Part shown: positions 3,564-44,346 of the stretch, one piece after another
How the letters are laid out: the number at the start of each line of letters is the position of its first letter
Numbering within the stretch: position 1 is the first letter of the stretch
NCBI GenBank assembly: GCA_963662795.1
Contig: OY759746.1
Coordinates: forward strand, 448,001-512,000
Direction: 5' to 3'
Length of the DNA stretch: 64,000 nt
Origin: Spirochaetia bacterium
GTDB taxonomy: Bacteria; Spirochaetota; Spirochaetia; CADAEX01
Translations under genes and position numbers: made by a program
The notes under the pieces: model-generated
The model's input: the letters and a program-made list of their open reading frames with translations, nothing else
What the model was told of the DNA's origin: nothing
The model's database searches: none

Positions 3564-3722
3564 GGATAACAGCGGGTAAGAAGCTACGCTCGGAGTACCT
3601 CGCTTGGGCTTCGCCATATTTTGCTTTCAAACAACCAGAATAATTCTTGTTATGTTCTTTTTAAGTTTCAAAAAATGACAAGCGAGTATTATAGTTTTAG
3701 CCGCAAAACATCTTTTACCCGC
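3564..3722 (+). repeat. Long attC-like site, 3' end cut by an IS3-type element
   Basis: ATAAC followed by GCGGGTAA (3572-3579) pairing with TTACCCGC (3715-3722); downstream of a small gene; R' box missing. Confidence 0.45.
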
Positions 3723-3762
3723 GGAATATGTCAACATAGATGAAGAATGATCTTTGAAATAA

Positions 3763-24444: not shown

Positions 24445-26019
24445 TTAAATATGAATGTTCCAAGGAAGAAGAGCTTCCATATCCGATTGGTCATCCAACT
24501 CGATTAATGGAAGCATTTCAAAAAGGTGGTAGAGATAATCCTGGGGCTCTAATTGATTAGCCTTTGCCGTTTCAATAAGGCTATAAAGTACAGCGCTGGC
24601 ATGAGCACCTTTGGGCGTATCAAAAAAAATCCAGTTTTTTCGTCCAATTACGAATGGCCGAATCGAATTCTCCGCCAAATTGTTGTCAGGAGTTACATAG
24701 ACATATTTCAAGTACCGGACCAATTTCTTATATTCATTGAGTGTATAATTTACGGCTTCTCCCAGCTTTGTTTTAGGAGGAATTGAAATCTCCCATTTCT
24801 TGAGGAGTTGATGGAATTCCTGCCAGAGAGGAATTACCTGTTTTCTACGCTCGGCAACAAAGAGTTCGTCATCAAGATGTTCTGCTCTGAGAGTTTTCTC
24901 TGCTTGATAGATTTTCTGGATAATCTTCAGAGCTTTATCAGCATTGCCTTCACCCTTTGTTATGGCAGCTGCTTCAAAGAATTTTCTTCGGGCATGGGCC
25001 AGGCACCCAACATGATAGAGTTTATATTCTTTGGAGGCTCTGTTATATCCGACATATCCATCTGTCTGGAGAACTCCTTTGAATCCATCCAAAAGGGAAA
25101 GAGGGATTTCTTCTCTTCTGGTCTGAGAGTAATTGAAAAGGACAATCTTCCGGTTCTGATCAGAACCGACGGTTACCCACATAAAGGATTTGTTTTCCGG
25201 TTTCCGGCCGGGTTCCTTTAAGACCTGAACAGTCGTTTCGTCCATATTTATAAGAGGACCTTCACGGGTTTTCTGCCGCATCAGTTCGATCAGAGGTTCA
25301 CAGGCTAAAGCAGCTTTGATTGCCCAGTTAGACATATTTGAACGACTGATTTCGATATCCAATCGTCTGAAAATCCTTTCCATTCGGCAGAAAGGCAGGG
25401 CATCACAGAATTTGCTGACCAGGATATAACTTAACAGACCCGAGGAAGCGATACTTCCGGGAATCAGCCGGGGTGGTACTGGTGCTTTTAGAATTACCGG
25501 GAGTGTCTCATCGTTCTGAAACTCCTCACATTTACAGGGACCATATTTAAGACGAACATGTTTTTTAACAATGATTTTCGCCGGAATAAACTGCAGTTCT
25601 TCCGATTCTTCTCTGCCGATTTCCAGCCTGTCGTTTCCGCAGCAGGGACAGGCTCTTTCTTCCGCCGGCAGTTCATAAATTATTTCTTCCCTGGGAATAT
25701 CCGCGGGAAGTGGTTTTCTTCCTGCTTTTCTTCGGGGATAGGTTTTGATTTCTTCCTGCTCCGGAGAAGATTCTGGTCCCTCAATAGTAGTTGCTGTTTC
25801 TTCGGCTTCATTGAACAGAACCATCTGCTGTTTATCTTCGGGTGTCCATTTCTCGCTGGTTCTGACGTATTTCAGTCTTTTCAGAAGAGCCACTTCTTCC
25901 CAGAGGGTATGAATAACAGACTCTTGTTGCTTCTGTTTTTCCTGGAGGTCCAGAATGAGTTCTTTCAGCTGAGTGACATCATTCGGCAATGATGATAATT
26001 TATTCGCTCCGCTAATCAT
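24445..26019 (-). CDS. tnpC: IS66 transposase TnpC, intact
   Basis: CPCCG zinc finger, MDETT, QTDGY, CLAHARRKF, DNNLAENSIRP. Confidence 0.95.
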   Translation of the reverse strand: MISGANKLSSLPNDVTQLKELILDLQEKQKQQESVIHTLWEEVALLKRLKYVRTSEKWTPEDKQQMVLFNEAEETATTIEGPESSPEQEEIKTYPRRKAGRKPLPADIPREEIIYELPAEERACPCCGNDRLEIGREESEELQFIPAKIIVKKHVRLKYGPCKCEEFQNDETLPVILKAPVPPRLIPGSIASSGLLSYILVSKFCDALPFCRMERIFRRLDIEISRSNMSNWAIKAALACEPLIELMRQKTREGPLINMDETTVQVLKEPGRKPENKSFMWVTVGSDQNRKIVLFNYSQTRREEIPLSLLDGFKGVLQTDGYVGYNRASKEYKLYHVGCLAHARRKFFEAAAITKGEGNADKALKIIQKIYQAEKTLRAEHLDDELFVAERRKQVIPLWQEFHQLLKKWEISIPPKTKLGEAVNYTLNEYKKLVRYLKYVYVTPDNNLAENSIRPFVIGRKNWIFFDTPKGAHASAVLYSLIETAKANQLEPQDYLYHLFEMLPLIELDDQSDMEALLPWNIHI

Positions 26020-26064
26020 GTGGATTAGCCTACCAGAAGAAGGAATATATTAATAGTGGTTTCA

Positions 26065-26412
26065 TCAGGAAACAGAAGAATAATTCAACTGTTTATGGGC
26101 ATGCCAGAAGTCGATTCCCTGTAAAAGCATCTGCAATTGTTTAAGGGATATTTCTTTAACATTTTCTTCTGTGACAGGCCAAGGAAAACGATCCTTCTCC
26201 AGTCGTTTGTACCACATGCAAAATCCGTTTCTATCCCAATACAGAACTTTTAAAAGCCATCTCTGTTTATTACAGAAAAGAAACAGAGAACCGGAAAATG
26301 GATCTTGTCCCAGATCTTCTTTGACTATCACAGATAATCCGTTTATCTGTTTCCGCATATCTGTTACCCCGGGCCTGACAAAAATATTTAAATGGGAAAG
26401 GTCAAGGATCAT
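26065..26412 (-). CDS. tnpB: IS66 accessory protein TnpB
   Basis: TDMRKQINGL, LFCNK, YWDRNGF. Confidence 0.93.
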   Translation of the reverse strand: MILDLSHLNIFVRPGVTDMRKQINGLSVIVKEDLGQDPFSGSLFLFCNKQRWLLKVLYWDRNGFCMWYKRLEKDRFPWPVTEENVKEISLKQLQMLLQGIDFWHAHKQLNYSSVS

Positions 26413-26567
26413 GATACTTTTCTTAAGGTGTTTAATAATCGAATTAAAGTACTTTCATCAAAATCAGAAGGAACAATAATTCTGGCATCCCCGATAAATA
26501 CTTCGATTGAACCCAACCCAGGTTTTCGGAATATGTCAACATAGATGAAGAATGATCTTTGAAATAA

Positions 26568-27644
26568 TTAAGCGGCGGTAGCCCCTTTTTGAGACTTACT
26601 CTTAATCATAGTATCAGCAGATGGATTCAAGTATACAACATGCTCTTTGGGCAGCATTTTAACATGTTTACTCCATCTCAAAGGATTCTTTTTGTATGCC
26701 TTCATCATAGTTTTATTTCGTTTTGTCGCGATCTCTTTGTATTCGCCATTTCTCATCTGTATGGGTGTAATAAAGTTTATTCCTGAGTGACTATGACTGG
26801 TATTATAGAAATCAACAAATGTCGAAAACCATGTTCTTGCCTCTGAAAGTATTTTGAACTTGCCAGGATACGAAACATGATATTTTAAGGTTTTAAACCA
26901 TGATTCAATGAATGGATTGTCATCACTGACTCTTGGCCTGGAATAACTATTACAAATACCAAGATCATAGAATAGAGCCAGTAATGAGATACCTTTCATG
27001 GGATTTCCATTATCAGAATGAACAAAGACATCAGCATAGTTGTTTTCCTTCAGGGCGGCATCAAAAAGTTCTTCTGATAGAGAATCATCCTCTCTATCAT
27101 GAATAGCCCATTTGACGATGCTTCTATCCCAGATATCAATGATGACATATGCGTAGTAGAAGAGGCCTCTGACATTTGTTGGCAACCAGGTTATATCCCA
27201 GCACCAAACCTGATTAGGTCCAGCTGCGACTCTTTCTGGTGGCTTATTATGACTTGTCCCAGGCCTCGTGTTTCCTCGATGATGAATAAGTCTGTTTTTC
27301 TTTAATACTCTATAAAAGGAGCTAACACTGGCAATATAAATGCCTTTACTAAGAAGAGATGCATGAATTTTGTATGGATTATCATCCTTATATTCAATGC
27401 TGCAACTAATTTCGATAATTTTGGCCTCTTCTTCTTTTGATAATTTTCTGGCCACTACTTTTGAACAGTCCTTGCGATTATCAGAAAGATTACCACGTCG
27501 CCATCTTTCAAAAGTGCTGGTTGAAATTTCAAGAGCTTCACAAGCTTTATGAATTCGGGCTCCTGCAGCAGATGCTTCTTTTATCAATTTAACTGCTTCC
27601 TGCCGCATATCCATCGGAATCAGTCGTCCTCTTCGTCCCCCCAA
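26568..27644 (-). CDS. IS3-family transposase OrfB
   Basis: Same protein sequence as 3763-4839. Confidence 0.92.
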   Translation of the reverse strand: MGGRRGRLIPMDMRQEAVKLIKEASAAGARIHKACEALEISTSTFERWRRGNLSDNRKDCSKVVARKLSKEEEAKIIEISCSIEYKDDNPYKIHASLLSKGIYIASVSSFYRVLKKNRLIHHRGNTRPGTSHNKPPERVAAGPNQVWCWDITWLPTNVRGLFYYAYVIIDIWDRSIVKWAIHDREDDSLSEELFDAALKENNYADVFVHSDNGNPMKGISLLALFYDLGICNSYSRPRVSDDNPFIESWFKTLKYHVSYPGKFKILSEARTWFSTFVDFYNTSHSHSGINFITPIQMRNGEYKEIATKRNKTMMKAYKKNPLRWSKHVKMLPKEHVVYLNPSADTMIKSKSQKGATAA

Positions 27645-28102
27645 AGAGCTTCTGCTTTTTTTTTAAGAGTATAGAGTGCAGCCATTTCAGCAAGAGCTTT
27701 TTCTTTTTTATTCAGCTCTTTTTGCAGTCGTTTATTTTCTTTCTGGAGATTTTTGATTTTCTGTTTTTCTTTGTGACCTTTATCTTCTACCATGTCTCGC
27801 AGTTCCTGTTTATATTGAGTGATATGTTCAGTGTGCAGACCTTTTTCACGAAGCCATTTCCCCTGATCCTCATTTTTAACAGAACCGGATTCTATAACCA
27901 GATTCAATTTTTCTCGAGGTGACCGATCGGCACTACTTACAGTATTCAGACTATCAAGTGTACCTTCTTTTGCTTTATTCAACCAGTTCCGTAATGTCTG
28001 ATCAGAGACTCCAGATTCAATTGCTATCACATAAGCGGATTTTCCATCTGATTCGAGTACTTTTCTTACTGTTGATTCTTTAAATCCTAAACTGTATCTC
28101 AT
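27620..28102 (-). CDS. IS3-family OrfA (HTH)
   Basis: MRYSLGFKE..TLRNW..LKKKA slippery site; GGAGG RBS. Confidence 0.88.
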   Translation of the reverse strand: MRYSLGFKESTVRKVLESDGKSAYVIAIESGVSDQTLRNWLNKAKEGTLDSLNTVSSADRSPREKLNLVIESGSVKNEDQGKWLREKGLHTEHITQYKQELRDMVEDKGHKEKQKIKNLQKENKRLQKELNKKEKALAEMAALYTLKKKAEALWGDEEDD

Positions 28103-28298
28103 AATTGAAACCTCCATATTGGTGCTTTAACTATGTTGACACATAGGGTTTTCCGGAAGTCATATCCCTGATATTTAGCTTTAGCAAATTTTTAGTATTG
28201 GGAATATCCTGTTTCTGTATTTTTATTCGCCATTGCCTGAAGCTCCAGTTAAACTGCGCCCTTTTGTCAACACACTTTTGACAAGTGTTTAAGGTGTA

Positions 28299-29117
28299 TC
28301 ACGCCGCCTGTTCTGCCAGGCTGACAGCCTGAAATGATTCATGTATTTCATCAGGAGTCCTGTATTCAAGACTCTGGTGGAAACGCCTGGTGTTAGAAAA
28401 ATTAAAATATTGCGTTACTCCTTCCTTAAGTTCTTTAACTGTTTCATAATGTTTTATATAAATATCTTCGTACTTGAGTGATCTCCAGAGCCTTTCGACA
28501 AAAATATTATCAGGCGCACGGTTTTTCCCGTCCATGCTTATTCTTATGCCATAATCATGCAGTACTTCTGTCCAGCAGGGTGAAGTAAATTGGCAGCCCT
28601 GATCAGTGTTGAAAATTGCAGCCACTCCATACTTTTCAATTGTTTCATGTAAGCAGTTTGCAAATATTGGCGCATCAAGTGTATTGGTTATTATCCAGTT
28701 AAGCACTTTGCGTGAATAAAGATCTATTACCGCCATCAGGTACACATGCCCTGATGGCAGTTTGATATAAGTCAAATCAGCAGCCCAGACCTGATTCGGG
28801 TATCTTATTATTTCCCCTTCAAGCAGATACGGATACTTCTTGCTTTCCTGCCTTGCTTTTGAAAGATTCTCTCCGGGAAATATTGCCATAAGCCCTGCTT
28901 TTCTCATGATTCTGCGTATCTGTTTCCGGGATACACTTAAGCCTTTACTATTGATCTCAAGAGCTATTTTTCTATAGCCATAAAATGGCAGGAGAATTAA
29001 TGTTTCCCTTATCTTTTTAAGTATCTCAATATCATTTTTCTCAATTTTCCTCCTGCTTTTGTAATATGCTGTACTTCGTAAAATAATCAGTGCCTTGCCT
29101 TGTTTTTTTACACTCAT
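28299..29117 (-). CDS. IS3 OrfB
   Basis: FYGYRKI, PNQVWAADLTYI, NTDQGCQFTS, DNIFVERLWRSLKYE. Confidence 0.92.
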   Translation of the reverse strand: MSVKKQGKALIILRSTAYYKSRRKIEKNDIEILKKIRETLILLPFYGYRKIALEINSKGLSVSRKQIRRIMRKAGLMAIFPGENLSKARQESKKYPYLLEGEIIRYPNQVWAADLTYIKLPSGHVYLMAVIDLYSRKVLNWIITNTLDAPIFANCLHETIEKYGVAAIFNTDQGCQFTSPCWTEVLHDYGIRISMDGKNRAPDNIFVERLWRSLKYEDIYIKHYETVKELKEGVTQYFNFSNTRRFHQSLEYRTPDEIHESFQAVSLAEQAA

Positions 29118-29137
29118 GTTTTCATATGCCTTTTCAA

Positions 29138-29446
29138 TCAGAAGGGATCGTTTCCGTATAGTTGTTTGTACTTCTTTTTTAGGAATTCATTTCCGATCTT
29201 CATCTTTCCGAGCGTTTTGAGTGCATCATCGTACTTCTCCTCGGCTTCGCGCTCTGAATCGCTTTTTTTATTGGGCCTTTCAAAGATATCCGGCAGGTTC
29301 TCTATTGCCTGCTTTTTCCATAGGCTGATCTGGTTTGGATGTACGTCATATTTTTTCGCAATTTCCTGTAAGGTTAGTTCCTCTCGAAGTGCATCCAGAG
29401 TTACTTTTGCCTTGAATGCCTTGTCAAATCTTTGTCTTTTTTTCAT
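29138..29446 (-). CDS. IS3 OrfA
   Basis: FKAKV, EIAKKYDVHPNQISLWKK, FLKKK. Confidence 0.92.
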   Translation of the reverse strand: MKKRQRFDKAFKAKVTLDALREELTLQEIAKKYDVHPNQISLWKKQAIENLPDIFERPNKKSDSEREAEEKYDDALKTLGKMKIGNEFLKKKYKQLYGNDPF

Positions 29447-29932: not shown

Positions 29933-31735
29933 TTAATATGGAATTGATAAAATAATTTTAGTTCCCACTCCAATTTTACTTATTATCTCAATAGTGCCAT
30001 TAATTTTCAACATAATATCTTTAACAATAGAAAGCCCTAATCCTTTATTGTTAGTATTCTTATGTTTTGTAGAAAAGAAAGGATCAAATACTTTCTTAAT
30101 ATTTTTTTGATTAATTCCGGATCCATTATCAATTATAGTTATATTTAAAATATTTTTTAAATTATAGCAATCAATTTCGAGTAATCCTCCACTTTCCATT
30201 GCTTCAATACTATTAATTGAAATATTATATAGCACTTGCATAATAAGAATATAATTTAAGCTATATATTTTCTTAAAAGGATACTTAATCTCACATTTTA
30301 TATTTTTTTCATTAACATATGGTTCAATTTTATCCAATAAAGTCTTCATCAATTGCCGGATATCAACCCGAATGTTTAGTTTTTTATTATCTGTATACAA
30401 TTGAATAAAATTAATAATTGCTTTTTGCAAGCGTAATATTTCATTTTCAATCTGACATATATGACTTCTTTTATGAATTTCTTCTTCTGTAGATTTTTCC
30501 AATAATTTTAAATAATTCAAAATAATATTTGACGAATTACTAATCTCATGATTGAGTTTTTGTATAAAAATATCATTATATTCACTATATTTTTTATTGA
30601 TATTATATTTTTTTCCATTCATAAACAAAAATAATATATTTCCAGTATTATCTGCATATTTAAAATACTTATTTGTTAATGAAATAATTTCAATGTGACA
30701 TTCTTTTTCATCAGGGAAAATACTTGGTTTAACATCTTTAATTGTCCTATAATTCACCTTTTCAAATAAATTATTTAAATCAATGTTAAGTTTTTTTATA
30801 TCCAACAAATCAACAATATTCTTTCCTGAAATTGTATCTTTTGATAAATTTATTTTATATAAAAAATATTTATTTACAAAAATAATTTTAAACATTGAAT
30901 TTGTTACAAGCATAGGTATATCAATATTTTCTAAAATAGTACTCATAAAGATATTTTCTTCAAATAACTGATTGTTGTGTTCCTCCAGAGTTGATCTACT
31001 AATTAAAGAAGAAAAATAATTTTTCACAAAATCTTCTTTGTTGATTTCATATTGCACCAATTGCTTGGTCACATCTATTATTTTCCCATCATCTAAAATA
31101 AATATTTTTGAAGCGAATTTACTGATTTTATTATCTATTTCAGTTGCAAAATATAATATTGAAATACCTTTATCCCTTAATAGGGATAATAAAAAATATA
31201 ATTTTTCGATCTCATCTGTGTTTAACCTATCTGTCGGATAATTAAAAATTAATAATTTAGGTGAAAAATAAAATACTTTACCTAATTCCAGGAACAATCT
31301 ATCAACTCTGTTATACTTATATATTTTTTCATCCAAATTAAATGAAAGTTTTAAGTGATTGAATATATCGAGTATTTTTTTTTTTGCTTTTTTTATTGAT
31401 GGCAGCAATATTTTTATATTATTACTTATTGTATAGTTTTCTATTATATTTAGATTATCAATTAATCCTGATTCTGAAAATATTGCAGATATTCCAAGGC
31501 GAATTGCTTTTTTAGGTGTTAATTTTTGTATTTTTTTATTTAATATAAAAATATCCCCTGTGTAATTGTGACTCATCCCATAAATTATTCTGGACAATAC
31601 CGATGTACCTGAATCACGTTTTCCCACTATAACTGCTATTTCATCCGGATAAATTGTTAGATTTATATTTTTAATAATATTATTTGTTTTTGTCGTATAT
31701 ATATTTTTCAGTTTTAAAATACTACTCATAATCAT
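29933..31735 (-). CDS. Soluble histidine kinase with N-terminal degenerate sugar-ABC ATPase domain and PAS-like domain
   Basis: N-term GKRDSGTS, AIRLGISAIFSE, LLIFNYPT; PAS-like ILENIDIPMLVTN..IIFVN; NHEISN, QVLYNISINSIEA, DNGSGI, FDPFFSTK, GLGL. Confidence 0.88.
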   Translation of the reverse strand: MIMSSILKLKNIYTTKTNNIIKNINLTIYPDEIAVIVGKRDSGTSVLSRIIYGMSHNYTGDIFILNKKIQKLTPKKAIRLGISAIFSESGLIDNLNIIENYTISNNIKILLPSIKKAKKKILDIFNHLKLSFNLDEKIYKYNRVDRLFLELGKVFYFSPKLLIFNYPTDRLNTDEIEKLYFLLSLLRDKGISILYFATEIDNKISKFASKIFILDDGKIIDVTKQLVQYEINKEDFVKNYFSSLISRSTLEEHNNQLFEENIFMSTILENIDIPMLVTNSMFKIIFVNKYFLYKINLSKDTISGKNIVDLLDIKKLNIDLNNLFEKVNYRTIKDVKPSIFPDEKECHIEIISLTNKYFKYADNTGNILFLFMNGKKYNINKKYSEYNDIFIQKLNHEISNSSNIILNYLKLLEKSTEEEIHKRSHICQIENEILRLQKAIINFIQLYTDNKKLNIRVDIRQLMKTLLDKIEPYVNEKNIKCEIKYPFKKIYSLNYILIMQVLYNISINSIEAMESGGLLEIDCYNLKNILNITIIDNGSGINQKNIKKVFDPFFSTKHKNTNNKGLGLSIVKDIMLKINGTIEIISKIGVGTKIILSIPY

Positions 31736-33102
31736 TTATAATAATTACTTATGTTAAGTTCTTTTATCCTTGTGTACAATGTTTTTCTGCTTATTTTCAA
31801 AAGTTTTGCAGCTTTTTCTTTGTTTCCTTCACTTTTTGTAAGAGCTTCAATAATTATTTTCTTCATAAATTTTTTATCATAGTCATCAAATGCAATATCA
31901 ATGTTTTGTTTTTGATTACTTTCTGTATCAATATAAACTTCTTTTGAATATTCAATAATTCTATCTGGAAGATTTTCCTCAGTTATTTCCCGATTATCAC
32001 ATATAACAACACATCTTTCAATGCAATTCTTAAACTCACGGATATTTCCCTGCCATTGATAATTTTTCAAATAATTCAAAACTTTTCTGTCTATTTTTAA
32101 GATATTTTTATTGTACTTTTTATTAAATAAATGAATAAAAAAATTTGCCAATTCTTCAATATCATCCTTTAATTCATTAAGTGAAGGCATAATTAAATTT
32201 ACCCCGTTTATCCTGTGATAAAGGTCAAGTCTAAATTTATTTTCCTTTATCATTTTAATTAAATCCTTATTGGTTGCTGTAATTATTCTGATGTCAACAG
32301 TAATTAGCTTGCTTGATCCAATAGGTGTAAATTTGAAATCTTCCAAAAATCGCAGCATTTTTGCCTGTAGAGAGTCCGTCATATCCCCAATTTCATCAAG
32401 AAAAAGAGTACCATTTTTAGCTTGTTCAATTTTTCCAATTTTTCTATCATTAGCTCCCGTAAAAGCACCTTTCTCATAACCAAAAAGCTCACTCTCCAAT
32501 AATGATTCGGGGATTGCCGCACAGTTAATACAAATAAATGGTTTATTTGCGCGATTACTTACATCTACAATATGTTTGGCAATAAGCTCTTTGCCTGTAC
32601 CACTTTCCCCCTGAATGAGGACAGGGATATTTGTTTTTGCAAACTTTTCTGCAAGTCTTAGATTTGTTTGATATTTGTTATTTTTAAAAAATGAATAAAT
32701 ATAAGGTTCTTTTAATTTAAAATCTTCATAAAGGGGAAGATTTTGTTTTATTAGAACAAGTAATTCATTAAAATTAAATGGTTTTACCAGATAATCAATT
32801 ACTCCCAGTTTAAATGCATTACGGGCACCATCTAAAGATGCATATGCTGTCATTAGTATAATTGGTATTTTCTTTTTTATCTTTTTTATGAATACAATAC
32901 CTGACATGTTAGGCATTACAATATCAGATAATATAAGATCTATGCTTTTTATTTGGTCTATTATTTCCAAACCTTTATTTGCATCATTAGCAATAAAGAT
33001 ATTAAACCCTTCTGTTTCTAATAGCTTTTTTAATGATAAACACATTCCTGGCTCATCATCAACAACTAGAACATTATAAGTTTTTTTTCCGTTTAAAATC
33101 AT
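31732..33102 (-). CDS. Sigma54-dependent response regulator (NtrC/AtoC type)
   Basis: VVDDE, SDIVMP, GESGTGKE, GAFTGA, FLDEIGD, GNIRE, Fis-type HTH. Confidence 0.95.
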   Translation of the reverse strand: MILNGKKTYNVLVVDDEPGMCLSLKKLLETEGFNIFIANDANKGLEIIDQIKSIDLILSDIVMPNMSGIVFIKKIKKKIPIILMTAYASLDGARNAFKLGVIDYLVKPFNFNELLVLIKQNLPLYEDFKLKEPYIYSFFKNNKYQTNLRLAEKFAKTNIPVLIQGESGTGKELIAKHIVDVSNRANKPFICINCAAIPESLLESELFGYEKGAFTGANDRKIGKIEQAKNGTLFLDEIGDMTDSLQAKMLRFLEDFKFTPIGSSKLITVDIRIITATNKDLIKMIKENKFRLDLYHRINGVNLIMPSLNELKDDIEELANFFIHLFNKKYNKNILKIDRKVLNYLKNYQWQGNIREFKNCIERCVVICDNREITEENLPDRIIEYSKEVYIDTESNQKQNIDIAFDDYDKKFMKKIIIEALTKSEGNKEKAAKLLKISRKTLYTRIKELNISNYYK

Positions 33103-33150: not shown

Positions 33151-33789
33151 CTAATAAATATTTTCATTTACGCTATTCTCTTTTAGCTTTTTTAAAAAAT
33201 TAGCTGCATAAACTCCATCAATAATCCTATGGTCAGCAGATAAATTTAAGCTAACAATATCATCGTCAGATTTTGAACCTATCCCAATGATTGCCACTTC
33301 AGGATAATTAATTATTGGATTAAATCTTTTAATGCCATAACTTCCTAAATTTGAAATCGTAAAAGTGCCGTTTGACATATCCATCAAGTTTAATTGATGA
33401 CTATTTGCTTTTTTAATAATTTCTACAAATTCATTTGCAATTGCATAAATTGTTTTTTTATTTGCGTTTTTTATATTTGGAACAAATAACCCATATTCTG
33501 TGTTTATTGCAAACCCTATATTTATTTCATTATGGATATTAATCATTTTGTCATCTACTGAAGCATTTAAAAGAGGGAAATCATTTAAAGTTACTGAACA
33601 TAATTTAATCATAAAGGGAAGAAATTGAATATTAATATTGTTATTCATTTTAAAATTATTTTTTAGTCTATATATTTCACTTACATTAAGTTCAATTTCA
33701 TAATCAACTTTAGGAATGATTTGCCAACTCTGACTCATTTTTGTGGCGATCCTCTTTCTTATGCCTTTAATTATTATTGGGGTAGACAT
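33151..33789 (-). CDS. 2-oxoacid/acetoin dehydrogenase E2, catalytic domain only
   Basis: RKRIATKM, GTFTISNLG, PIIN, DHRIIDG; own GGAG RBS. Confidence 0.9.
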   Translation of the reverse strand: MSTPIIIKGIRKRIATKMSQSWQIIPKVDYEIELNVSEIYRLKNNFKMNNNINIQFLPFMIKLCSVTLNDFPLLNASVDDKMINIHNEINIGFAINTEYGLFVPNIKNANKKTIYAIANEFVEIIKKANSHQLNLMDMSNGTFTISNLGSYGIKRFNPIINYPEVAIIGIGSKSDDDIVSLNLSADHRIIDGVYAANFLKKLKENSVNENIY

Positions 33790-33794
33790 GTTTT

Positions 33795-34037
33795 TTACTC
33801 CGAACAGTCAATATAGGCAATAACATCACCAGCTGTCACGTCTTCACCTTCGTTAAATTTAATTTCTGTCAGAACTCCATCAAATGGACATTCAATTTCA
33901 TTTACAGCTTTATCGCTCTCAACTGTTAAGAGTATTTCTCCCTTTTTTACTGCTTGTTGTTCTTTTATTTCCCATGAGACAATATTAACTTCTTCGTTAA
34001 TTTGACCGTACTTTGGCATTTTTATTTCACGCAACAT
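33795..34037 (-). CDS. Stand-alone lipoyl-domain protein
   Basis: IKMPKYG, VESDKAVNEIE (lipoyl Lys). Confidence 0.9.
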   Translation of the reverse strand: MLREIKMPKYGQINEEVNIVSWEIKEQQAVKKGEILLTVESDKAVNEIECPFDGVLTEIKFNEGEDVTAGDVIAYIDCSE

Positions 34038-34047
34038 AATTACCTCC

Positions 34048-35067
34048 TCAAATATTTAACATATCCAATATTTCTTTTTCAATTTTTTCTTCACCAGGAA
34101 TAACATATTTTTCCAAATCTGGAGAACAGGGGATTGGAATATCCATTGTTGTTACTTTTTTCACTGGACTGCACAATATTTTATAATTTTTTTCATAAAT
34201 AATTGATGACAACTCAGAACTCCAACTGCAAAAACCATTATCTTCGTCAACAATCATAAGTTTTTTTGTTTTTTTGACAGAACTGTCAATTAATTCTATA
34301 TCAAGTGGAACTAAAGTCCTGGGATCTATTATTTCAATATCAATTCCTTTTTTCTCATAAAGCCTCTGGCAAATTTTAATAGTTTTTTTAAGTAAAAGTA
34401 AAGTTGCAACTATTGTAAGATCTTTTCCTTTTCTTCTTATAATACCTTTACCAAATGGCGTTATTTCTTCAATTACACCTGATGAATCCTCTTCTTGTTC
34501 AACAGCACCTTTTTCTAATCTTCCTCCACCATATAAAAGCTTATGCTCTAAAAATAGTATAACGCCATTTGATCTAATAGCATTTTTCATTAACCCTTTT
34601 GCATCCTGAGGTGTAGACGGAACTACAACAGTTATTCCTGGAACATGACAAAAAAAAGCTGCTGGAGTTTGTGCATGCTGGGCTCCTCTAGAAGTAGCAC
34701 CTACCGGCGCTCTAATAATCACTGATATAGTATTTTTTCCACCTGACATAAATCTAATCTTTGCGGCCTGATTAACGATTTGATCCATAGCACAAAAAAG
34801 AAAATCCGAATATTGCACCTCGGTTATCGGTTTAAAACCCAACAGTGATACACCAACAGCAGAACCAATTATTGCTGATTCTGATATGGGTGTATCGATA
34901 ATTCTTTCATGCCCATATTTTTCTGACAACCCTTTAGTTACTGTAAAAGGGCCTCCCCAACCTCCAGTTATTCCAATATCTTCGCCAAGACATATTACTT
35001 TTGGATTAATATCCATTTCTTCATCTATAGCTTCATTAATAGCTTTTGCAATTGACAGTTTTTTCAT
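34048..35067 (-). CDS. TPP-dependent dehydrogenase E1 beta (AcoB/PdhB-like)
   Basis: GEDIG, DTPISE, DQIVNQAAK, GAQH, DPRTLVPLD. Confidence 0.93.
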   Translation of the reverse strand: MKKLSIAKAINEAIDEEMDINPKVICLGEDIGITGGWGGPFTVTKGLSEKYGHERIIDTPISESAIIGSAVGVSLLGFKPITEVQYSDFLFCAMDQIVNQAAKIRFMSGGKNTISVIIRAPVGATSRGAQHAQTPAAFFCHVPGITVVVPSTPQDAKGLMKNAIRSNGVILFLEHKLLYGGGRLEKGAVEQEEDSSGVIEEITPFGKGIIRRKGKDLTIVATLLLLKKTIKICQRLYEKKGIDIEIIDPRTLVPLDIELIDSSVKKTKKLMIVDEDNGFCSWSSELSSIIYEKNYKILCSPVKKVTTMDIPIPCSPDLEKYVIPGEEKIEKEILDMLNI

Positions 35068-35084
35068 ATTATTTATACACCTAT

Positions 35085-36029
35085 TTATAAAAATTCAAAT
35101 ATTCTCGTTTTATCAAGCAAATTACTTTCTTCCGCAAACTTAACAGCCTCATTTATCTCTTTTTCAATTTTAATATCAATTTTTTTCATTTTTTCTTCAA
35201 GAAATATGTTATCTCCAATTAATTTTTTCTTGAATATATTAATTGGATCATTTTTCCCCCATTCCTCTTCTTCTGCTTTATCACGATAACTGCATGCATC
35301 ATTTCTAGAATGCCCTCTATGCCGATAAGTTCTATATTCTATAAGAGTTGGTCCGTCACCATCACGTGCCCTGTCAATAGCTTTTTTAGCAATTTCCATT
35401 ACTGTATCAATATCATTACCAAAACCTGTTACACCTGGAATCCCATAACTTATTGCTCTATCTGATATTTTTTCAATATTAGTAGTTTTCTTATAATATG
35501 TAGATGCTGCATATAGATTATTTTCACATATAAACACAACCGGAAGTTTATAAACAGAACAAAAATTTATTCCTTCATGAAAAAAACCTTGATTACTTGC
35601 TCCATCTCCAAAAAAACAAACTGCCACATTTTTATTATTAAGTAATTTTAATCCCAGACCAATACCGGCAGAAATAGGTATATTTGCACCTACGATAGCA
35701 TTTGAAGTAACGATCCCTAAATCAATATTTCCCAAATGCATTGCTCCACCCAAACCTTTACAACAACCATTTTCTTTTCCGTATAATTCAGCCATGATTT
35801 CCCTCATAGTCATTCCTTTGGCAAGGCAATGTCCAACTGGTCTATGAGTACTTAAAATATAATCTTCTTTGGTTAATAAATTACAAACACCTACGGCTAT
35901 TGCTTCTTGTCCCTGGGATTGGTGAACTGTTCCTGGAATTGCATCTTGAAGAAATAAATAATAAACCGCATCTTCAAACATTCTAATTTGTTTCATTTTT
36001 TCATATAAAAATAGTTCTTTTTCCAACAT
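35085..36029 (-). CDS. TPP-dependent dehydrogenase E1 alpha (AcoA/PdhA-like)
   Basis: GQEA, STHR, FGDGA..ENN TPP motif, YRHRGHS. Confidence 0.93.
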   Translation of the reverse strand: MLEKELFLYEKMKQIRMFEDAVYYLFLQDAIPGTVHQSQGQEAIAVGVCNLLTKEDYILSTHRPVGHCLAKGMTMREIMAELYGKENGCCKGLGGAMHLGNIDLGIVTSNAIVGANIPISAGIGLGLKLLNNKNVAVCFFGDGASNQGFFHEGINFCSVYKLPVVFICENNLYAASTYYKKTTNIEKISDRAISYGIPGVTGFGNDIDTVMEIAKKAIDRARDGDGPTLIEYRTYRHRGHSRNDACSYRDKAEEEEWGKNDPINIFKKKLIGDNIFLEEKMKKIDIKIEKEINEAVKFAEESNLLDKTRIFEFL

Positions 36030-36045
36030 ATTTTGATTCCCCAAT

Positions 36046-36093: not shown

Positions 36094-37458
36094 TCAAACA
36101 TCAATAAAAAGTTTATCCTGTAATTTTCTTAGTTGATGTACTAATGTATCTGTGTTTTTCATTTCAACATCGTTATAAGTAATAGCATTACCCTTCTTTA
36201 TCTCTTTCTTCAATACACACCCTTTAGCTAAACCAAAAGGAAGGAGATTATCATTTCGTGCAATTATAGCTTTCTCTATTCTTCCGGCAGAATAAAAACC
36301 GCCAATCTCATCAATAATATCTCCTGTTTTCAGATCTTTCTTTGCAATTGTTATTGTTTCTGCATATCTTTTTTCCGGTAGTGGGGCAACAGATGCTTGA
36401 TTATAGAGTGCTGCATAAGCAATTGATATAGGAGCTGTATTTCCAACCCAATGAATTGGTTCATACCAGACCCAGTTAGGACCAGGTCCACCGGAACCAT
36501 GGTATTTCAACCCTTCAGTTGCGGCTGTTACTTTTGAAGTTACTACAATAAAGCATAAAATTGTACCCACACCACCAGGAATACCTACCATTTCAACAAC
36601 ACCTTTTTGATTTAGTAAACCACCATCCTTTTTCAATGCAAATTTTGCTGCAGCATTTTTCTGAAAATCCCCATCAAATGCAATTAATGGACTATGTGTA
36701 CCTCTTACATCAGGGACAAGTCCTGTGGCATTTGCCAGCATTGTCAATTCTTCACTGGTTTTTGATCCATCATTAAATGATGCAAACATATATGGATTAA
36801 TTGGCATTGTTTTAGGATCAAATCCTCTTTTTTTTGCTCTTCCTTCAATCAATGTTTTTACAGTATCGGGATTCCAGTTTAAATCTGAGTTACCAGTATC
36901 ACCTCTTCCAGCCGCAACAACTTCAAATCCCAGGGAAGTTGCCTGATCGTATAATAATTTAATAACTCCAGGTTCATCTCCATAAATACCTGTGTAGGTT
37001 ACTCCGGCAGTGTCAGCAAGCATTTTAAGAATATGTCCAACAACGACATCCATTTCTACACTCATAGATACTACATGTTTTTTTCTTCTAATAGATTCAA
37101 AACAAAAATTAGTACCTACTTCAACATTTCCAGTACATTCAACAACCACTTGTATTTCTTTAAGTGCCAAAAGTATTTTGAAATCTTTAGTTACTACTAC
37201 TTTTTTATTTCTGATTGCCTTTTCTGCTTCTTCAAGATTTTTACAAATTGCTATTTTCTCATCACTTACACCTGACAATTGTAATACCTTAACACATTTG
37301 TCTGTATCGATATCGACAACAATTTTTACATCCATTCCAGGAGACATAGTTGTCTGCCCACAAAGATTCATTCCCATTGCACCGGCTCCGACAATGCCAA
37401 CACCTATTGAACACCCATCATTCTCCATTTGTTGAAGTTTAGTATTAAGACCAAACAT
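36094..37458 (-). CDS. NAD(P)-dependent homoserine-dehydrogenase-like oxidoreductase with C-terminal SAF domain (COG4091-like)
   Basis: GAGAMG, ECTG, GDEPG, FNDGSK, ANATG, AKKDLKTG..IGG, LPFGLA. Confidence 0.85.
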   Translation of the reverse strand: MFGLNTKLQQMENDGCSIGVGIVGAGAMGMNLCGQTTMSPGMDVKIVVDIDTDKCVKVLQLSGVSDEKIAICKNLEEAEKAIRNKKVVVTKDFKILLALKEIQVVVECTGNVEVGTNFCFESIRRKKHVVSMSVEMDVVVGHILKMLADTAGVTYTGIYGDEPGVIKLLYDQATSLGFEVVAAGRGDTGNSDLNWNPDTVKTLIEGRAKKRGFDPKTMPINPYMFASFNDGSKTSEELTMLANATGLVPDVRGTHSPLIAFDGDFQKNAAAKFALKKDGGLLNQKGVVEMVGIPGGVGTILCFIVVTSKVTAATEGLKYHGSGGPGPNWVWYEPIHWVGNTAPISIAYAALYNQASVAPLPEKRYAETITIAKKDLKTGDIIDEIGGFYSAGRIEKAIIARNDNLLPFGLAKGCVLKKEIKKGNAITYNDVEMKNTDTLVHQLRKLQDKLFIDV

Positions 37459-37466
37459 TTTTCCTC

Positions 37467-38231
37467 CTAATTAATCGATTTATATATTTCATTATACATT
37501 ATTGTATAATCTTCAATGTTGAGACCACTTCTACCAACAAATACACCTGATACATTATTTGTATTTATTATTTTTCTTATATTTTCAACTGAAACACTTC
37601 CGCCATAGAGAATGATAAATTTTTCATCATTCTTTCCATATATTTTATTGATATAGTTTTTTATAAAAGTATGCATATACTCTATGTATTTTTGATCTGC
37701 ACTATCCTTAGTTCCTATTGCCCATACCGGTTCATATGCAAAAATTATTTTTTTTGCATCATTGATTGTTATTCCGTATAGTGCTTCTTTCAATTGAAGT
37801 TGCAATATTTCTTCACTCAAGCCTTTTTCCTTTTCATCCTGATTCTCACCTATGCAAAAAATTGGTATTTTGCCATATCTAATTATTGCTTTTAGTTTTT
37901 TATTAATTACACTATTTGTCTCGGCGAAATATTTCTTTCTTTCTGCATGGCCCACCTCAATATATTCAACTCCTATTTTCACCAACTCTTTAATTGAAAC
38001 TTCTCCTGTGAAAGCACCATTATCTTCATACCATCCATTTTGGGCTCCTACCTTAACACCTGATTCATTTAAGATTAAAAGGACATCTTTGATAGCAGTA
38101 AGAGATGGCAAAACAAATAGTTCTACTTTATCATTTTTCAATTTAAGATTTTTAATTTTTAAAGCAAGATCTTTCGCCTCATTATCGCTCAAATACATTT
38201 TCCATCCACACCCAAATATTTTTTTCTCCAT
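37467..38231 (-). CDS. Triose-phosphate isomerase-family protein, non-housekeeping (LerI/EryH-like)
   Basis: GCGWKM instead of AGNWKM, EVGHAER, YEPVWAIG, YGGSV, FVGRS instead of LVGGAS. Confidence 0.85.
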   Translation of the reverse strand: MEKKIFGCGWKMYLSDNEAKDLALKIKNLKLKNDKVELFVLPSLTAIKDVLLILNESGVKVGAQNGWYEDNGAFTGEVSIKELVKIGVEYIEVGHAERKKYFAETNSVINKKLKAIIRYGKIPIFCIGENQDEKEKGLSEEILQLQLKEALYGITINDAKKIIFAYEPVWAIGTKDSADQKYIEYMHTFIKNYINKIYGKNDEKFIILYGGSVSVENIRKIINTNNVSGVFVGRSGLNIEDYTIMYNEIYKSIN

Positions 38232-38256: not shown

Positions 38257-39051
38257 TTAATGGAATTCTCTTCCACCTGTTATATTTACTGATTGACCTG
38301 TCATAAAACTGGTTTTATCAGAACATAAAAATACAGCCATATTTGAAATATCATCACATTTACCTTTCCGTTTTAATGGTGTATTTTCTATTGTGAGCTT
38401 TTTTTTCTCTTCAATTGAAATATTTAATAATTTTGCCATATTCTCTGTTACTTTATCATTCATCCCAGTATCAATACTTCCCGGACAAATTGAATTTATA
38501 TTTATCCCATATTCCCCCAATTCACGGGCAAGACTTTGAGTAATATTTATAACAGCACTTTTAGATGCACTATATACTGTTTCGAATAAGAACCCTGTTT
38601 TTCCTGCTTGAGAAGCAATATTCACAATTTTTCCATATCGATTTTTTTTCATGTTGTTAATCACGGCCTGACAACAGAAAAAAACACTTTTTACATTTAT
38701 ATTGAATATTTTATCCCATATTTCTTCTGTTATATCTTCAACCCGACTAACATCAACAATACCAGCTGAATTTATTAGTATATCAATTCGTTTAAATTGT
38801 TCACAAATATTCTTAACTTCTTCGTCTACTCTATTTTTATCTGTAATATCAATTTTTATTGCCTGAAGATATTTTCCATTTTTTTGATTTTCCTCTATAT
38901 TTTTAATCGTATTATCGATATTAATATCAAAAATAAAAACTTTTGCTCCTTCCTTCACGAGTTCTCTGGAAATTGATAAACCAATACCAGCCCCTCCACC
39001 AGTGACAACTGCAATTTTATCTTTTAAAAACAGTTCCATATCAACCTTCAA
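38257..39051 (-). CDS. SDR oxidoreductase (polyol dehydrogenase-like)
   Basis: TGGGAGIG, NSAG, ASQAGK, YSASK, NITGG. Confidence 0.92.
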   Translation of the reverse strand: MKVDMELFLKDKIAVVTGGGAGIGLSISRELVKEGAKVFIFDINIDNTIKNIEENQKNGKYLQAIKIDITDKNRVDEEVKNICEQFKRIDILINSAGIVDVSRVEDITEEIWDKIFNINVKSVFFCCQAVINNMKKNRYGKIVNIASQAGKTGFLFETVYSASKSAVINITQSLARELGEYGININSICPGSIDTGMNDKVTENMAKLLNISIEEKKKLTIENTPLKRKGKCDDISNMAVFLCSDKTSFMTGQSVNITGGREFH

Positions 39052-40027
39052 TATTTTCTTTTTTCTTTAACAAACTATCTATTGCAACTGCAAATATAAT
39101 TAGAATACCAACTACAATTCTCTGAAAAAATGGGTTTACTCCAACAATATTTAGTCCATTTAATATTACGCCGTAAATCAAAATACCAAACCCAGTTTTA
39201 ACCATTGATCCTCGGCCACCAGATAGACTTGTCCCACCTATTACAACTGCAGCAATAGCATCCATTTCCAACCCTGAACCAGCAGATGATTCAGCAGCAT
39301 TCATACGCATCAGAAGAATAATTCCGCCAATCGATGTCATCATTCCTGATAACATATAAACGAATACGGTATTTCTTCTCACTGAAATGCCACTGATTTT
39401 TGCAGCCAGCGAGTTGCCGCCAATTGCATATATTGAACGACCCAATGTTGTATAACGCATTATCAGAATAAAAATAATAAAAATAATTATCACAATAAAT
39501 ATTATTGCTGGAACTCTTATCCATGTATTAGTTGCAAGATATCTGAAATTTTCTGGCAAAGGATAAATTGTAGAACCCAATGTATAAGTCAATTGAAGGC
39601 CTTTTGCAATTCCCATCATACCTAATGTTGCAACTAAAGGCGGTATTTTAAGAAAAACTACATTAACTCCATTAATACCTCCTAAAGCAATTCCTATAAG
39701 AATTGCAACTGAACAAGCTACTAAAATACTATTACCGCTTTTTAACATCCCAGCACAAATTGCAGATGTAACAGCTAACACAGACCCTACTGACAAATCA
39801 ATTCCACCAGTTAAAATTACTAACGTTTCTGCTATTGCCACAGGAGTTAATATTGATATTTGTAAAAAAATATTATAAATATTTCTTTCAGATAAAAATC
39901 TTGGCTCTGCAGTAAAAAATAATATAATCAAAATAAACAAAGCTAATATGAGTGGACTTTTATTTATCAATTTTAAAACTGTATTATTTTTCAACCTATA
40001 GGTATTTTTCATATAATCCTCCCCCAT
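39041..40027 (-). CDS. Sugar ABC transporter permease (RbsC-like)
   Basis: GGIDLSVGS, GRSIYAIGGN, AVVIGGTSLSGG. Confidence 0.95.
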   Translation of the reverse strand: MGEDYMKNTYRLKNNTVLKLINKSPLILALFILIILFFTAEPRFLSERNIYNIFLQISILTPVAIAETLVILTGGIDLSVGSVLAVTSAICAGMLKSGNSILVACSVAILIGIALGGINGVNVVFLKIPPLVATLGMMGIAKGLQLTYTLGSTIYPLPENFRYLATNTWIRVPAIIFIVIIIFIIFILIMRYTTLGRSIYAIGGNSLAAKISGISVRRNTVFVYMLSGMMTSIGGIILLMRMNAAESSAGSGLEMDAIAAVVIGGTSLSGGRGSMVKTGFGILIYGVILNGLNIVGVNPFFQRIVVGILIIFAVAIDSLLKKKENIEG

Positions 40028-40047: not shown

Positions 40048-41574
40048 CTATGCAGTAAGTATAGATAATAACTTTTGTTCATCTCTTACCTCACCATTTT
40101 TATATTCTCCAATTATTTTTCCTTTTTTCAGGACAATGAACCTGTCAGGTACTTCAAGTATTTCAGCAAGCTCTGATGAAACAAATATTATCGATTTTCC
40201 TTTTTCTGCTTCGGATTTTAGTAAATTATAGATCTCAAATTTCGCTCCCACATCTATTCCTCTTGTTGGTTCGTCCAAAATTAATATTTCCGAATCAGCA
40301 AGCAACCACTTTCCAAGTACAATTTTTTGCTGATTCCCACCACTTAAATTTGCAATTAGTATTTTAGCATTAGCTGGTTTTACACTTAATTCATTAACAA
40401 TTTTATTTGCAAATATTTTTTCCTTTTTTAAATTGATAAACCCTTTATAGTTTTGAAATATTTTCAAACTGCTTAACGTTATATTTTTTGCTACGCTGAG
40501 AAATGGGATAATGCCTTCAAGTTTCCTATCTTCTGTTATAAATCCGATTCCATTTTTAATACTGTATTTGATACTTCTGGATTTTCTTTCTTTACCGTGA
40601 ATAAAAACGCTGCCTCCATTTGATTTATTAATACCATATATGATTTTTAATATTTCAGTTTTACCACTACCGAGTAGACCGGTTATTCCCAGTATTTCTC
40701 CTTTCTTCAATTTAAAACTTACATCATCAACCTTTTTTTCGTATTTGATGTTTTTTACTTCTAAAATAATTTCATTTGGTCCATTATATATCCTTGATGC
40801 ACCACGGCGTATATTTTTTGTACCCAACATTTTATGTATCAATAAATCTTTATCAATTTCAGTTGTTTTAAATATTCCCTCACTTCTTCCGTCTTTTAAA
40901 ACCAATATATTATCACTTACTGCTATAACTTCATCTAAAAAATGAGAAACAAAAATTATTGCGACATCTTTTTTCTTCAATTTCTTTATATGCGTAAAAA
41001 GGAATTTTTTTTCATTTTCTGACATACTAGAAGTTGGTTCATCAAGAAGTAATACTTTTGAGTTCAATATTAATGCTTTAATTATTTCAATAATTTGTTT
41101 ATTAGCAGGTGTTAGTTCTGAAACGCAAGTGCAGGGACCAACATCCTCTAAATTAATATCAAGATATTCAATATATTTTTTCACTAAATTGTTTATGCTT
41201 TTCCAGTTAATAAATGGCGATTGATTATTCCAAGCTCCAAGAACAATATTTTCTGCAACAGTTAGATTTGGACACAATGCACTTTCCTGAGATACATAAG
41301 CTATTTTATATAATTCACGTGCTTGATGAGGTGAACTGATCTCAATATTTTTTCCATTAATTAATATATTACCTCCATCGTTATTATAGACACCAGTTAA
41401 TATTTTTATTAATGTTGATTTACCTGCACCATTCTCACCGACAATACCCAATATTTCACCACTGTTAAGTTTAATTGAAACCTGATCAAGTGCTTTAACA
41501 CTCAAAAAATTTTTACTAATATTTTGCATTTCAAGGTAATTTTTAGTTTCTGTATTTTCCTGGTTAGTGTTCAT
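40048..41574 (-). CDS. Sugar ABC transporter ATP-binding protein (RbsA-like)
   Basis: GENGAGKS, LDEPT, LSGGNQQK, DEPTRGIDVGAK. Confidence 0.95.
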   Translation of the reverse strand: MNTNQENTETKNYLEMQNISKNFLSVKALDQVSIKLNSGEILGIVGENGAGKSTLIKILTGVYNNDGGNILINGKNIEISSPHQARELYKIAYVSQESALCPNLTVAENIVLGAWNNQSPFINWKSINNLVKKYIEYLDINLEDVGPCTCVSELTPANKQIIEIIKALILNSKVLLLDEPTSSMSENEKKFLFTHIKKLKKKDVAIIFVSHFLDEVIAVSDNILVLKDGRSEGIFKTTEIDKDLLIHKMLGTKNIRRGASRIYNGPNEIILEVKNIKYEKKVDDVSFKLKKGEILGITGLLGSGKTEILKIIYGINKSNGGSVFIHGKERKSRSIKYSIKNGIGFITEDRKLEGIIPFLSVAKNITLSSLKIFQNYKGFINLKKEKIFANKIVNELSVKPANAKILIANLSGGNQQKIVLGKWLLADSEILILDEPTRGIDVGAKFEIYNLLKSEAEKGKSIIFVSSELAEILEVPDRFIVLKKGKIIGEYKNGEVRDEQKLLSILTA

Positions 41575-44268: not shown

Positions 44269-44284
44269 AGCAAAATATATGCCA
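44269..44284 (-). promoter_or_regulatory. Sigma54 -24/-12 promoter
   Basis: TGGCATATATTTTGCT with exact GG-N10-GC spacing upstream of the first operon gene. Confidence 0.85.
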
Positions 44285-44292
44285 AACATCAC

Positions 44293-44346
44293 ATAAGTAC
44301 TTATAAAACAACTCTAGATATAAGTACTTATTTTATAAGTACTTAT
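44293..44346. promoter_or_regulatory. Three perfect 12-bp palindromes ATAAGTACTTAT
   Basis: At 44293-44304, 44320-44331 and 44335-44346. Confidence 0.7.

Follow-up and report, generated by a model that had tools for sequence, protein, structure and literature searches.

The 64,000-nucleotide stretch analysed here (the window) belongs to contig OY759746.1 of a Spirochaetia bacterium, and our subject is a gene at positions 29933–31735 of its minus strand, coding for a histidine kinase of 600 amino acids (P0001) whose N-terminal part is a nucleotide-binding domain (NBD) of the ATP-binding cassette (ABC) type. The NBD is followed by a helical linker, a PAS-like domain, a dimerization and histidine phosphotransfer (DHp) hairpin, and a catalytic and ATP-binding (CA) domain. 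The start codon of the kinase gene overlaps the stop codon of a response regulator gene (31732–33102, minus strand), and this ATGA overlap with an NtrC-type activator, described in an earlier note on the same DNA, was borne out by the sequence and by Pfam. An alternative in-frame ATG is present two codons into the kinase gene; the public gene call P0003 (598 amino acids) begins there. The regulator, an NtrC/AtoC-type protein of 456 amino acids, comprises a receiver domain (Response_reg, 89.8 bits), a sigma-54 AAA+ domain (Sigma54_activat, 223.9 bits) with the GAFTGA motif in its translation, and a Fis-type helix-turn-helix domain (HTH_8, 42.4 bits). Since its score against the NCBIfam model AtoC (399 bits) is below the cut-off of 714 bits, it is not an AtoC orthologue, and no other equivalog cut-off was reached.

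A domain scan of the kind proposed in the earlier note identified ABC_tran at residues 22–165 of the kinase (47 bits, cut-off 25, E 5e-12) and HATPase_c at residues 497–599 (68.7 bits), whereas the match of PAS_9 to residues 274–326 (21 bits) was under its cut-off of 27, and the Pfam model HisKA (PF00512) gave no match at E ≤1. Residues 17–242 match the N-terminal halves of the CUT2 sugar transporter ATPases AlsA, LsrA, YtfR, MglA, XylG and RbsA in NCBIfam (E 1e-28 to 1e-22), albeit with scores far under all equivalog cut-offs (the top match, AlsA, reached 97 of 772 bits), and the kinase has a single NBD in place of the tandem NBD1–NBD2 arrangement of such ATPases. In BLASTP comparisons with the tandem ATPase encoded in the same operon, the kinase NBD showed 26% identity to either half of that protein (E 3e-12 for the N half, 1e-11 for the C half). 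The AlphaFold2 model of the kinase, calculated with an 86-row family alignment (mean predicted local distance difference test score, pLDDT, 83.9), consists of an NBD (residues 1–230), linker helices (233–269), a PAS-like domain (275–372), a DHp hairpin (384–447) and a catalytic domain (455–599), and contains no periplasmic domain. Foldseek searches related the N-terminus to MalK (3puv_B; root-mean-square deviation 2.5 Å over 219 columns) and FtsE (template-modelling score 0.80), and the remainder to PAS-DHp-CA kinases including VicK, YF1 and ThkA. These results agree with the earlier proposal of an ABC ATPase fold resembling the N half of the RbsA-like ATPase of the operon. A transmembrane segment was likewise not found in the 600 residues, the highest Kyte-Doolittle mean over 19 residues being 1.26, as the note had stated.

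On the minus strand, the pseudo-NBD of CUT2 N-half type (residues 1–230), assigned by Pfam, NCBIfam, motif census, fold and tree position, is thus encoded by positions 31046–31735, the helical linker (residues 231–270; model helices 233–244 and 247–269) by 30926–31045, and the PAS-like domain (residues 271–372), which was delimited from the sub-cut-off PAS_9 match, the modelled strands and helices and Foldseek, by 30620–30925. The DHp hairpin (30395–30586) was placed by alignment and model; its two helices span residues 384–414 and 419–447, and its phospho-acceptor, His396, is invariant across the family alignment. In the HATPase_c domain (residues 455–599; 29939–30373), the N, G1, F and G2 box residues are present (N504, N508, D536, G538, G540, F550, F553, G565 and G567). 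Of the complete set of H, N, G1, F and G2 boxes reported in the earlier note, His396 and the catalytic boxes are therefore in place, whereas the H-box reads HEISNSS instead of the family's HEINNPL, with Pro401 and Leu402 both replaced by Ser. The protein is a soluble class-I (HisKA-type) histidine kinase, and its input module goes back to the N-terminal one of the two ATPase domains in a CUT2 sugar importer.

Despite its ABC fold, the NBD of the kinase lacks the motifs of a working ABC ATPase (GxxGxGK[ST], the Q-loop Gln, hhhhDE and the H-loop His). Compared with the operon's own ATPase, Walker A is GKRDSGTS instead of GENGAGKS (K44T), the Q-loop IFSES instead of VSQES (Gln to Ser), Walker B FNYPT (in LLIFNY) instead of LDEPT (D165N/E166Y), and the H-loop YFATE instead of FVSHF (His to Thr). 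The signature motif is non-canonical as well, but it is so in the operon's own ATPase (LTPANKQ) and throughout the kinase family, hence its change is not specific to the window copy. The claim that every catalytic motif is altered accordingly held for Walker A, Walker B and the H-loop, while the change in the signature region turned out not to be special to this protein.

A word-index search had returned a full-length match of the kinase to itself only, but its apparent singleton status was overturned by an exhaustive HMMER search over 1.84 billion cluster representatives, which gave 85 matches at E ≤1e-30. Among the best 150 matches, from which lengths were taken, 85 are proteins of 560–660 amino acids, most with an alignment that spans roughly residues 5–599; the fusion is therefore not unique to this genome, whereas uniqueness is what the earlier note had named as speaking against its proposal. 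The closest full-length relative, P0073, aligns with residues 6–593 (E 1e-62, 31% identity), and the window protein itself matches the family profile over positions 7–608 with 464.6 bits. All family members possess a PAS-like domain between NBD and DHp. The public names of the relatives are generic ("ATP-binding cassette domain-containing protein", "AtoS", "PAS domain S-box protein"). In a sample of 401 genomes of the same phylum, full-length matches (at least 600 bits, open reading frames (ORFs) of about 600–625 codons) occur in 13 genomes besides that of the window; three candidates were scored per genome, so copy numbers are minima. Scanning a genome collection with a 15-row alignment yielded 80 loci, 74 of which match the kinase half only and six the full length, the latter being labelled as five spirochaetes and one member of candidate division KSB3. 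The ESM Atlas contains a 62-member cluster with the domains ABC_tran, HisKA and HATPase_c, commonest in Spirochaetota (score 0.95). No description of the NBD-PAS-kinase architecture was found in the full-text literature outside subscription journals and supplementary files, in line with the statement in the earlier note that no characterised example was known to it.

In a tree of 71 NBDs, obtained by a quick IQ-TREE search with Shimodaira-Hasegawa-like approximate likelihood ratio test (SH-aLRT) values as the only support and no bootstrap, a single clade (SH-aLRT 100) takes in all 35 of the 35 NBDs borne by kinases. It is nested within the group of CUT2 N halves (96); the C halves group apart, in a clade of their own (98). 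The window NBD pairs with that of P0072 (SH-aLRT 100) on a long stem of 1.58, and is one of three rows with deviant composition. Repeated local capture of a neighbouring ATPase domain was rejected as the origin of the fusion, as all kinase NBDs belong to a single clade. Judged by this tree and the database matches, the kinase belongs to a sizeable family which was derived once from a CUT2 N-half NBD.

Most of the family has retained the key ATP-site residues that are lost in the window protein. Of the 85 relatives, 80 have the Walker A Lys, 77 the Walker B Asp, 74 the catalytic Glu, 66 the Q-loop Gln and 40 the H-loop His; Lys, Asp and Glu are jointly intact in 68. Homologues that keep the docking surface while losing the Walker motifs, which the earlier note had proposed to look for, are consequently not the rule in this family. 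A dead ATP site is confined to the window copy, the fragment P0072 and a few further lineages, and the degenerate members occupy at least three separate positions in the tree; loss of the site is thus the rarer state, with several origins on the tree. A segment following the Q-loop, L(S/T/N)hxEN, is present in every degenerate member. P0072, a fragment of 373 amino acids with 46–47% identity to the window kinase, carries the same degenerate motifs (GKRDSG, YPTD, YF(A/T)(T/N)E), and the two proteins are identical at 116 of 226 NBD positions, 21 of 40 linker positions and 36 of 95 PAS positions; the dead NBD is therefore conserved rather than freshly decayed. The closest full-length relatives, P0073–P0076, have an intact Walker A and a Walker B ending in D-Q or D-D. 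ABC ATPases with such a Walker B bind ATP, but hydrolyze it poorly. The motifs of P0073–P0076 look like steps of a graded series that ends in the dead site of the window protein. The latter represents a fully nucleotide-dead but conserved lineage within an NtrC-linked subfamily.

The genomic surroundings of the relatives were compared for 15 loci from 12 genomes, using BLASTP and Pfam on 134 neighbouring ORFs, with 11 long or distant ORFs set aside. An NtrC-type regulator gene is located directly upstream of the kinase gene, on the same strand, in 14 of the 15 loci, the fifteenth ending at a contig edge, and CUT2 transporter genes are found within about 6 kb of the kinase in 14. The cargo genes vary between the loci. 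Matches to the sigma-54 −24/−12 element (with at most one mismatch) occur in intergenic positions in 12 of the 15 loci, and in ten of the loci such a match precedes the neighbouring operon, at most 250 nt ahead of its first gene; within genes, two of 14 matches were found in about 250 kb of related loci. Six further full-length loci from named records all have CUT2 genes, with the regulator seen in five and a well-placed promoter match in four. The pairing of the kinase with a sigma-54 activator and a CUT2 importer is conserved, and the co-occurrence of homologues with CUT2 sugar ABC operons anticipated in the earlier note was thus found in 14 of 15 related loci. The family probably takes a direct reading of the importers beside which it sits. 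Two divergent, back-to-back regulator–kinase pairs of this family, each beside its own CUT2 transporter, were observed in a metagenome-assembled spirochaete genome (L066, 2953–9803).

In the window, the CUT2 permease (BPD_transp_2, 328 amino acids) is encoded at 39041–40027 on the minus strand. A complex of this permease (17-row alignment) with residues 1–245 of the kinase (86-row alignment) was predicted, as the earlier note had suggested. The interface score ipSAE (interaction prediction score from aligned errors) was 0.74, 0.74 and 0.73, compared to 0.00 for the best of three controls. The mark applied to this score is reached by 58 of 80 solved complexes and by two of 110 mismatched pairs, counts which are rough here as our own alignments were supplied. 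The runs share at least 94% of their contacts, with a partner pLDDT of at least 80. In the model, the cytoplasmic permease loop formed by residues 192–215 lies against residues 52–54, 73–111 and 139 of the NBD, and this contact surface of the NBD is the canonical coupling-helix groove.

The permease and the kinase belong to an operon of 13 ORFs on the minus strand, all of them open. Its first gene codes for an FGGY-family sugar kinase (42739–44256, probably starting with the ATG at 44256 rather than the GTG at 44292), followed by genes for a periplasmic sugar-binding protein (Peripla_BP_4, 41645–42706), a tandem-NBD CUT2 ATPase of 508 amino acids with canonical Walker A and B motifs in both halves (40048–41574), and the permease. 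Downstream of these are genes for a short-chain dehydrogenase (38257–39051), a protein of the triosephosphate isomerase family (37467–38231), a DRL-type oxidoreductase (36094–37458), and the E1 alpha (35085–36044) and E1 beta (34048–35067) subunits of a thiamine pyrophosphate-dependent 2-oxoacid or acetoin-type dehydrogenase. The corresponding E2 component is split over two ORFs within 33151–34037, one for a lipoyl domain (33795–34037, 80 amino acids; Biotin_lipoyl, 71.5 bits) and one for the acyltransferase catalytic domain (33151–33789, 212 amino acids), and no E1/E3-binding domain was seen between the lipoyl and catalytic parts. The regulator and kinase genes terminate the operon.

A scan of the window for TGGCAC-N5-TTGC with at most one mismatch gave a single match, TGGCAT-N5-TTGC at 44270–44284 on the minus strand. 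This sigma-54-type element ends 14 nt short of the ATG of the first gene, therefore a transcript from it would be near-leaderless. The genome encodes RpoN (sigma-54). Candidate binding sites of the regulator are three perfect 12-bp palindromes, ATAAGTACTTAT, at 44293–44304, 44320–44331 and 44335–44346; they lie within 75 bp upstream of the promoter match, the first beginning 8 bp upstream of the −24 element, and at most one mismatch being allowed, six matches were observed versus 0.35 expected. A one-mismatch copy, ATAATTACTTAT, occurs at 31741–31752, at the end of the regulator gene and just ahead of the kinase start, possibly by chance. The kinase most probably phosphorylates the co-transcribed activator, which in turn fires the sigma-54 promoter of this 13-gene uptake and catabolism operon, and since the operon contains the regulatory genes, the circuit would be positively autoregulated. 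For the earlier claim that the pair switches on a sigma-54 operon, the promoter match, rpoN and the NtrC-type partner were found, whereas activation itself is what we infer from them.

The operon is part of a block of low G+C content (GC; 22–36% between about 29.9 and 44.4 kb, with flanks of about 40%), which is bracketed by genes of IS66-, IS3-, IS5- and IS21-type insertion sequences, some of them broken (24445–29446 and 44747–48888). IS66- and IS3-type genes are on one side, and a broken IS66 gene, IS5-type and IS21 genes on the other. Low GC and bracketing insertion sequences suggest that the operon block is probably acquired DNA. The GC content at third codon positions (GC3) is uniform in the 12 long genes of the operon (0.17–0.22). 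Relaxed selection as a reason for the very low GC of the kinase gene (22%) was ruled out, as its GC3 equals that of the other operon genes. Two copies of an IS3-type element are marked by a direct repeat with 100% identity over at least 300 nt (3722–4021 and 26527–26826), with further matching sites at 4524–4670 and 27329–27475.

The best explanation overall, to which we give an even chance of being right, is that a pseudo-NBD seated on the permease drives the kinase, and through it the activator and the sigma-54 operon. On the CUT2 permease, the pseudo-NBD would stand in for a motor domain at the cytoplasmic coupling loop, the loop lying in the groove formed by the segment that follows the Q-loop. 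Permease movements set off by transport or by the sugar-loaded binding protein would enter the docked NBD and then pass via the helical linker and the PAS domain to the DHp helices, so that the kinase is switched. For the majority of the family, the switch would probably also involve an ATP-dependent closure of the kinase dimer's two NBDs; in the window copy and its closest relative this step would have been lost, leaving the NBD as a purely conformational docking module. As the kinase possesses neither a transmembrane segment nor a periplasmic domain, another sensor is lacking in the protein, which fits this explanation.

Several observations weigh against it. NBD–permease complexes are solved textbook pairs, and the high interface scores may reflect mere likeness to an NBD; on this account the domain looks able to dock, and docking itself is something we infer. 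Among 11 loci including the window, several of which are from closely related genomes, cognate pairs scored 0.79 and non-cognate pairs 0.66 BLOSUM units per column, but no cognate-specific similarity was detected at the interface columns, where 569 of 5000 permutations reached the observed value; since non-interface columns gave 132 of 5000, there is no signal specific to the interface. The interface positions of the NBD are more variable than the remainder of the domain (entropy 2.84 versus 2.39 bits, p 0.013), a pattern expected of specificity and equally of a surface free of constraint. All complete transporters in the neighbourhood come with an ATPase of their own, mostly of the tandem form and of the single-NBD form in loci L040 and L053, hence the kinase would have to compete for the permease. 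One locus, L051, contains no ABC genes within about 6 kb of the kinase, and has LacI, FGGY, aldolase and AraA genes instead. The spacing between palindromes and promoter is unusually short for an enhancer-binding activator. In the window copy, 14 of 51 family-conserved positions are altered, including Pro401 and Leu402 of the H-box, and with its gene on a low-GC island bracketed by insertion sequences, the kinase has a putative function only in this host. Docking of the pseudo-NBD on the permease, as put forward in the earlier note, is consequently supported by its modelled position in the coupling groove and not by any cognate-specific interface signal, and the chances that it docks there and relays the state of the permease to the kinase appear about evenly balanced.

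These points have to be set against what other explanations leave open. The NBD could be a self-contained nucleotide switch with no contact to a transporter, the two NBDs of a kinase dimer closing around ATP and thereby reporting energy charge or gating the kinase; in the window protein the switch would be dead and the kinase constitutive or driven solely by the PAS domain. The intact Walker A Lys and Walker B Asp-Glu in 68 of the 85 relatives, the D-Q or D-D Walker B of the closest full-length ones, and the missing cognate signal at the interface all agree with such a role. An energy sensor, however, would have no sugar specificity, yet CUT2 importers and varied catabolic genes adjoin the kinase in 14 of 15 loci; moreover, the NBD descends specifically from the CUT2 N half, and after loss of its ATP site it has been kept and is more conserved than the PAS domain, so that we regard this role as unlikely. 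That the PAS domain is the true sensor, detecting the imported sugar or a metabolite in the cytoplasm while the NBD is a scaffold for dimerization or stability left from an old fusion, seems unlikely to us, too. It would leave the occurrence of 35 of 35 NBDs in one conserved clade without reason and the survival of the groove segment after loss of catalysis unexplained, and the PAS match itself is weak (21 bits, under the cut-off); on the other hand, a PAS-like domain stands between NBD and DHp in all members, the nearest relatives of solved structure are PAS-DHp-CA kinases, ThkA among them, and the fast divergence of the domain (36 of 95 positions identical to P0072) is expected if ligand specificity shifts.

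NBDs naturally dimerize head to tail, and single-NBD CUT2 ATPases of 262–281 amino acids, the usual form being a tandem protein of about 500, are encoded in two related loci (L040, 5703–6500; L053, 2523–3311 and 5808–6653), where they could pair with a foreign NBD. The pseudo-NBD might therefore bind a cytoplasmic partner other than the permease, for example the tandem ATPase of the transporter, and read its state. MalK–MalT and PstB–PhoU–PhoR are models for a partner which reads the state of an ATPase. In the window and most loci, however, the ATPase is of the tandem type, its halves pairing with each other, and as both Walker A and the signature motif are degenerate in this copy, an ATP-sandwich heterodimer is unlikely for it; we consider such a partnership improbable. 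The island location between insertion sequences, the long NBD stem (1.58), the 14 altered positions, two of them in the H-box, and the lack of a Pfam HisKA match would be in accord with a decaying passenger on a horizontally acquired island which has lost signalling. This is very improbable, given that the frame of 600 codons is open, as are all 13 ORFs of the operon, that His396 and the residues of the catalytic boxes are all kept, that the kinase gene is no outlier in GC3, and that the degenerate motifs are shared with a relative of 46% identity, which implies long selection on the dead state.

Within the preferred explanation, that of a pseudo-NBD docked on the permease, a more far-reaching form can be envisaged, in which the kinase dimer replaces the ATPase on the CUT2 permease dimer, and a dedicated transmembrane receptor is assembled from binding protein, permease and kinase. 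We regard this as possible, though doubtful. An ABC importer would then have been converted to a signalling device, with ATP-driven closure of the fused NBDs as the switch in most members. If so, the nucleotide-free switch of the window lineage would show that movement imposed by the permease is enough to drive a histidine kinase.

To our knowledge, co-sensing by transporters and kinases is known only from non-covalent pairs, such as the Bce modules, DctA–DcuS and Pst–PhoU–PhoR. BceS is an intramembrane kinase which, as a separate protein, contacts the permease BceB within the membrane, and its regulator is of the OmpR type. The window kinase, in contrast, is soluble, has a paralogue of an NBD covalently fused to it and is proposed to touch the coupling loop on the cytoplasmic side; its regulator is a sigma-54 activator, and the transporter imports sugar with the help of a binding protein. 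The two transmembrane helices of a Bce-type kinase and an FtsX-domain BceAB transporter are also missing, as the kinase has no transmembrane segment and the permease belongs to BPD_transp_2. What the flux-sensing Bce modules (BceAB with BceS/BceR; PMC4513084, PMC10314905) share with our proposal is a kinase without a ligand domain of its own that reads an ABC transporter and induces the transporter genes; the resemblance is functional only. Two-component induction of a CUT2 importer by way of a paralogue of a transporter component is also found in the XylFII–LytS–YesN system of the xylose importer genes xylFGH in Clostridium, where, according to the review PMC8050422, the recruited part is a paralogue of the periplasmic binding protein that binds the extracellular domain of a membrane kinase. 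In the window kinase, it is the cytoplasmic ATPase domain that has been recruited, and it is fused to a soluble kinase.

With respect to its parts, the protein is related to two groups of known proteins. The CUT2 ATPases RbsA, AlsA, MglA, XylG and YtfR (TC 3.A.1.2) are its best NCBIfam matches, and the NBD clade of the kinases is nested in their N halves, but the protein has one NBD, does not exceed 97 bits as compared to cut-offs of 586–850, has its catalytic residues replaced, and carries a PAS-kinase portion where the second NBD stands. On the kinase side, the family profile matches ThkA (PDB 3a0r) over positions 261–609 (E 3e-75) and ZraS (PDB 9jfj) over positions 377–608, and AtoS is the top NCBIfam kinase match of the window protein, just as its regulator resembles AtoC and NtrC. 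ThkA, ZraS and NtrB/AtoS-type kinases, however, have no ABC NBD, and the Pro-Leu pair of the family H-box is missing from the window kinase. A second kind of fusion with an N-terminal NBD is represented by P0013 (618 amino acids; ABC_tran-GAF-HisKA_2-HATPase_c), whose Walker A (GERGVGKK) and Walker B (LHEPT) are likewise non-canonical. ESM Atlas clusters of ABC_tran-kinase proteins of about 826–852 amino acids with a GAF domain, commonest in Actinomycetota (scores 0.85, which are leads only), may be added to it. These fusions differ from the family of the window kinase in having GAF instead of PAS in the middle and in their kinase class, which is HisKA_2/HWE-like.

How kinases receive the signal of a transporter is difficult to examine in non-covalent co-sensor pairs. 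With a natural covalent fusion of a transporter motor domain to a kinase, this step could be approached in a defined protein that is soluble and tractable, and the ATP-competent, hydrolysis-poor and fully dead NBDs of the family would represent a natural mutant series. If the proposed mechanism is true, it would account for an induction of sugar importers that needs neither repressor nor periplasmic sensor in many spirochaetes and in some other bacteria.

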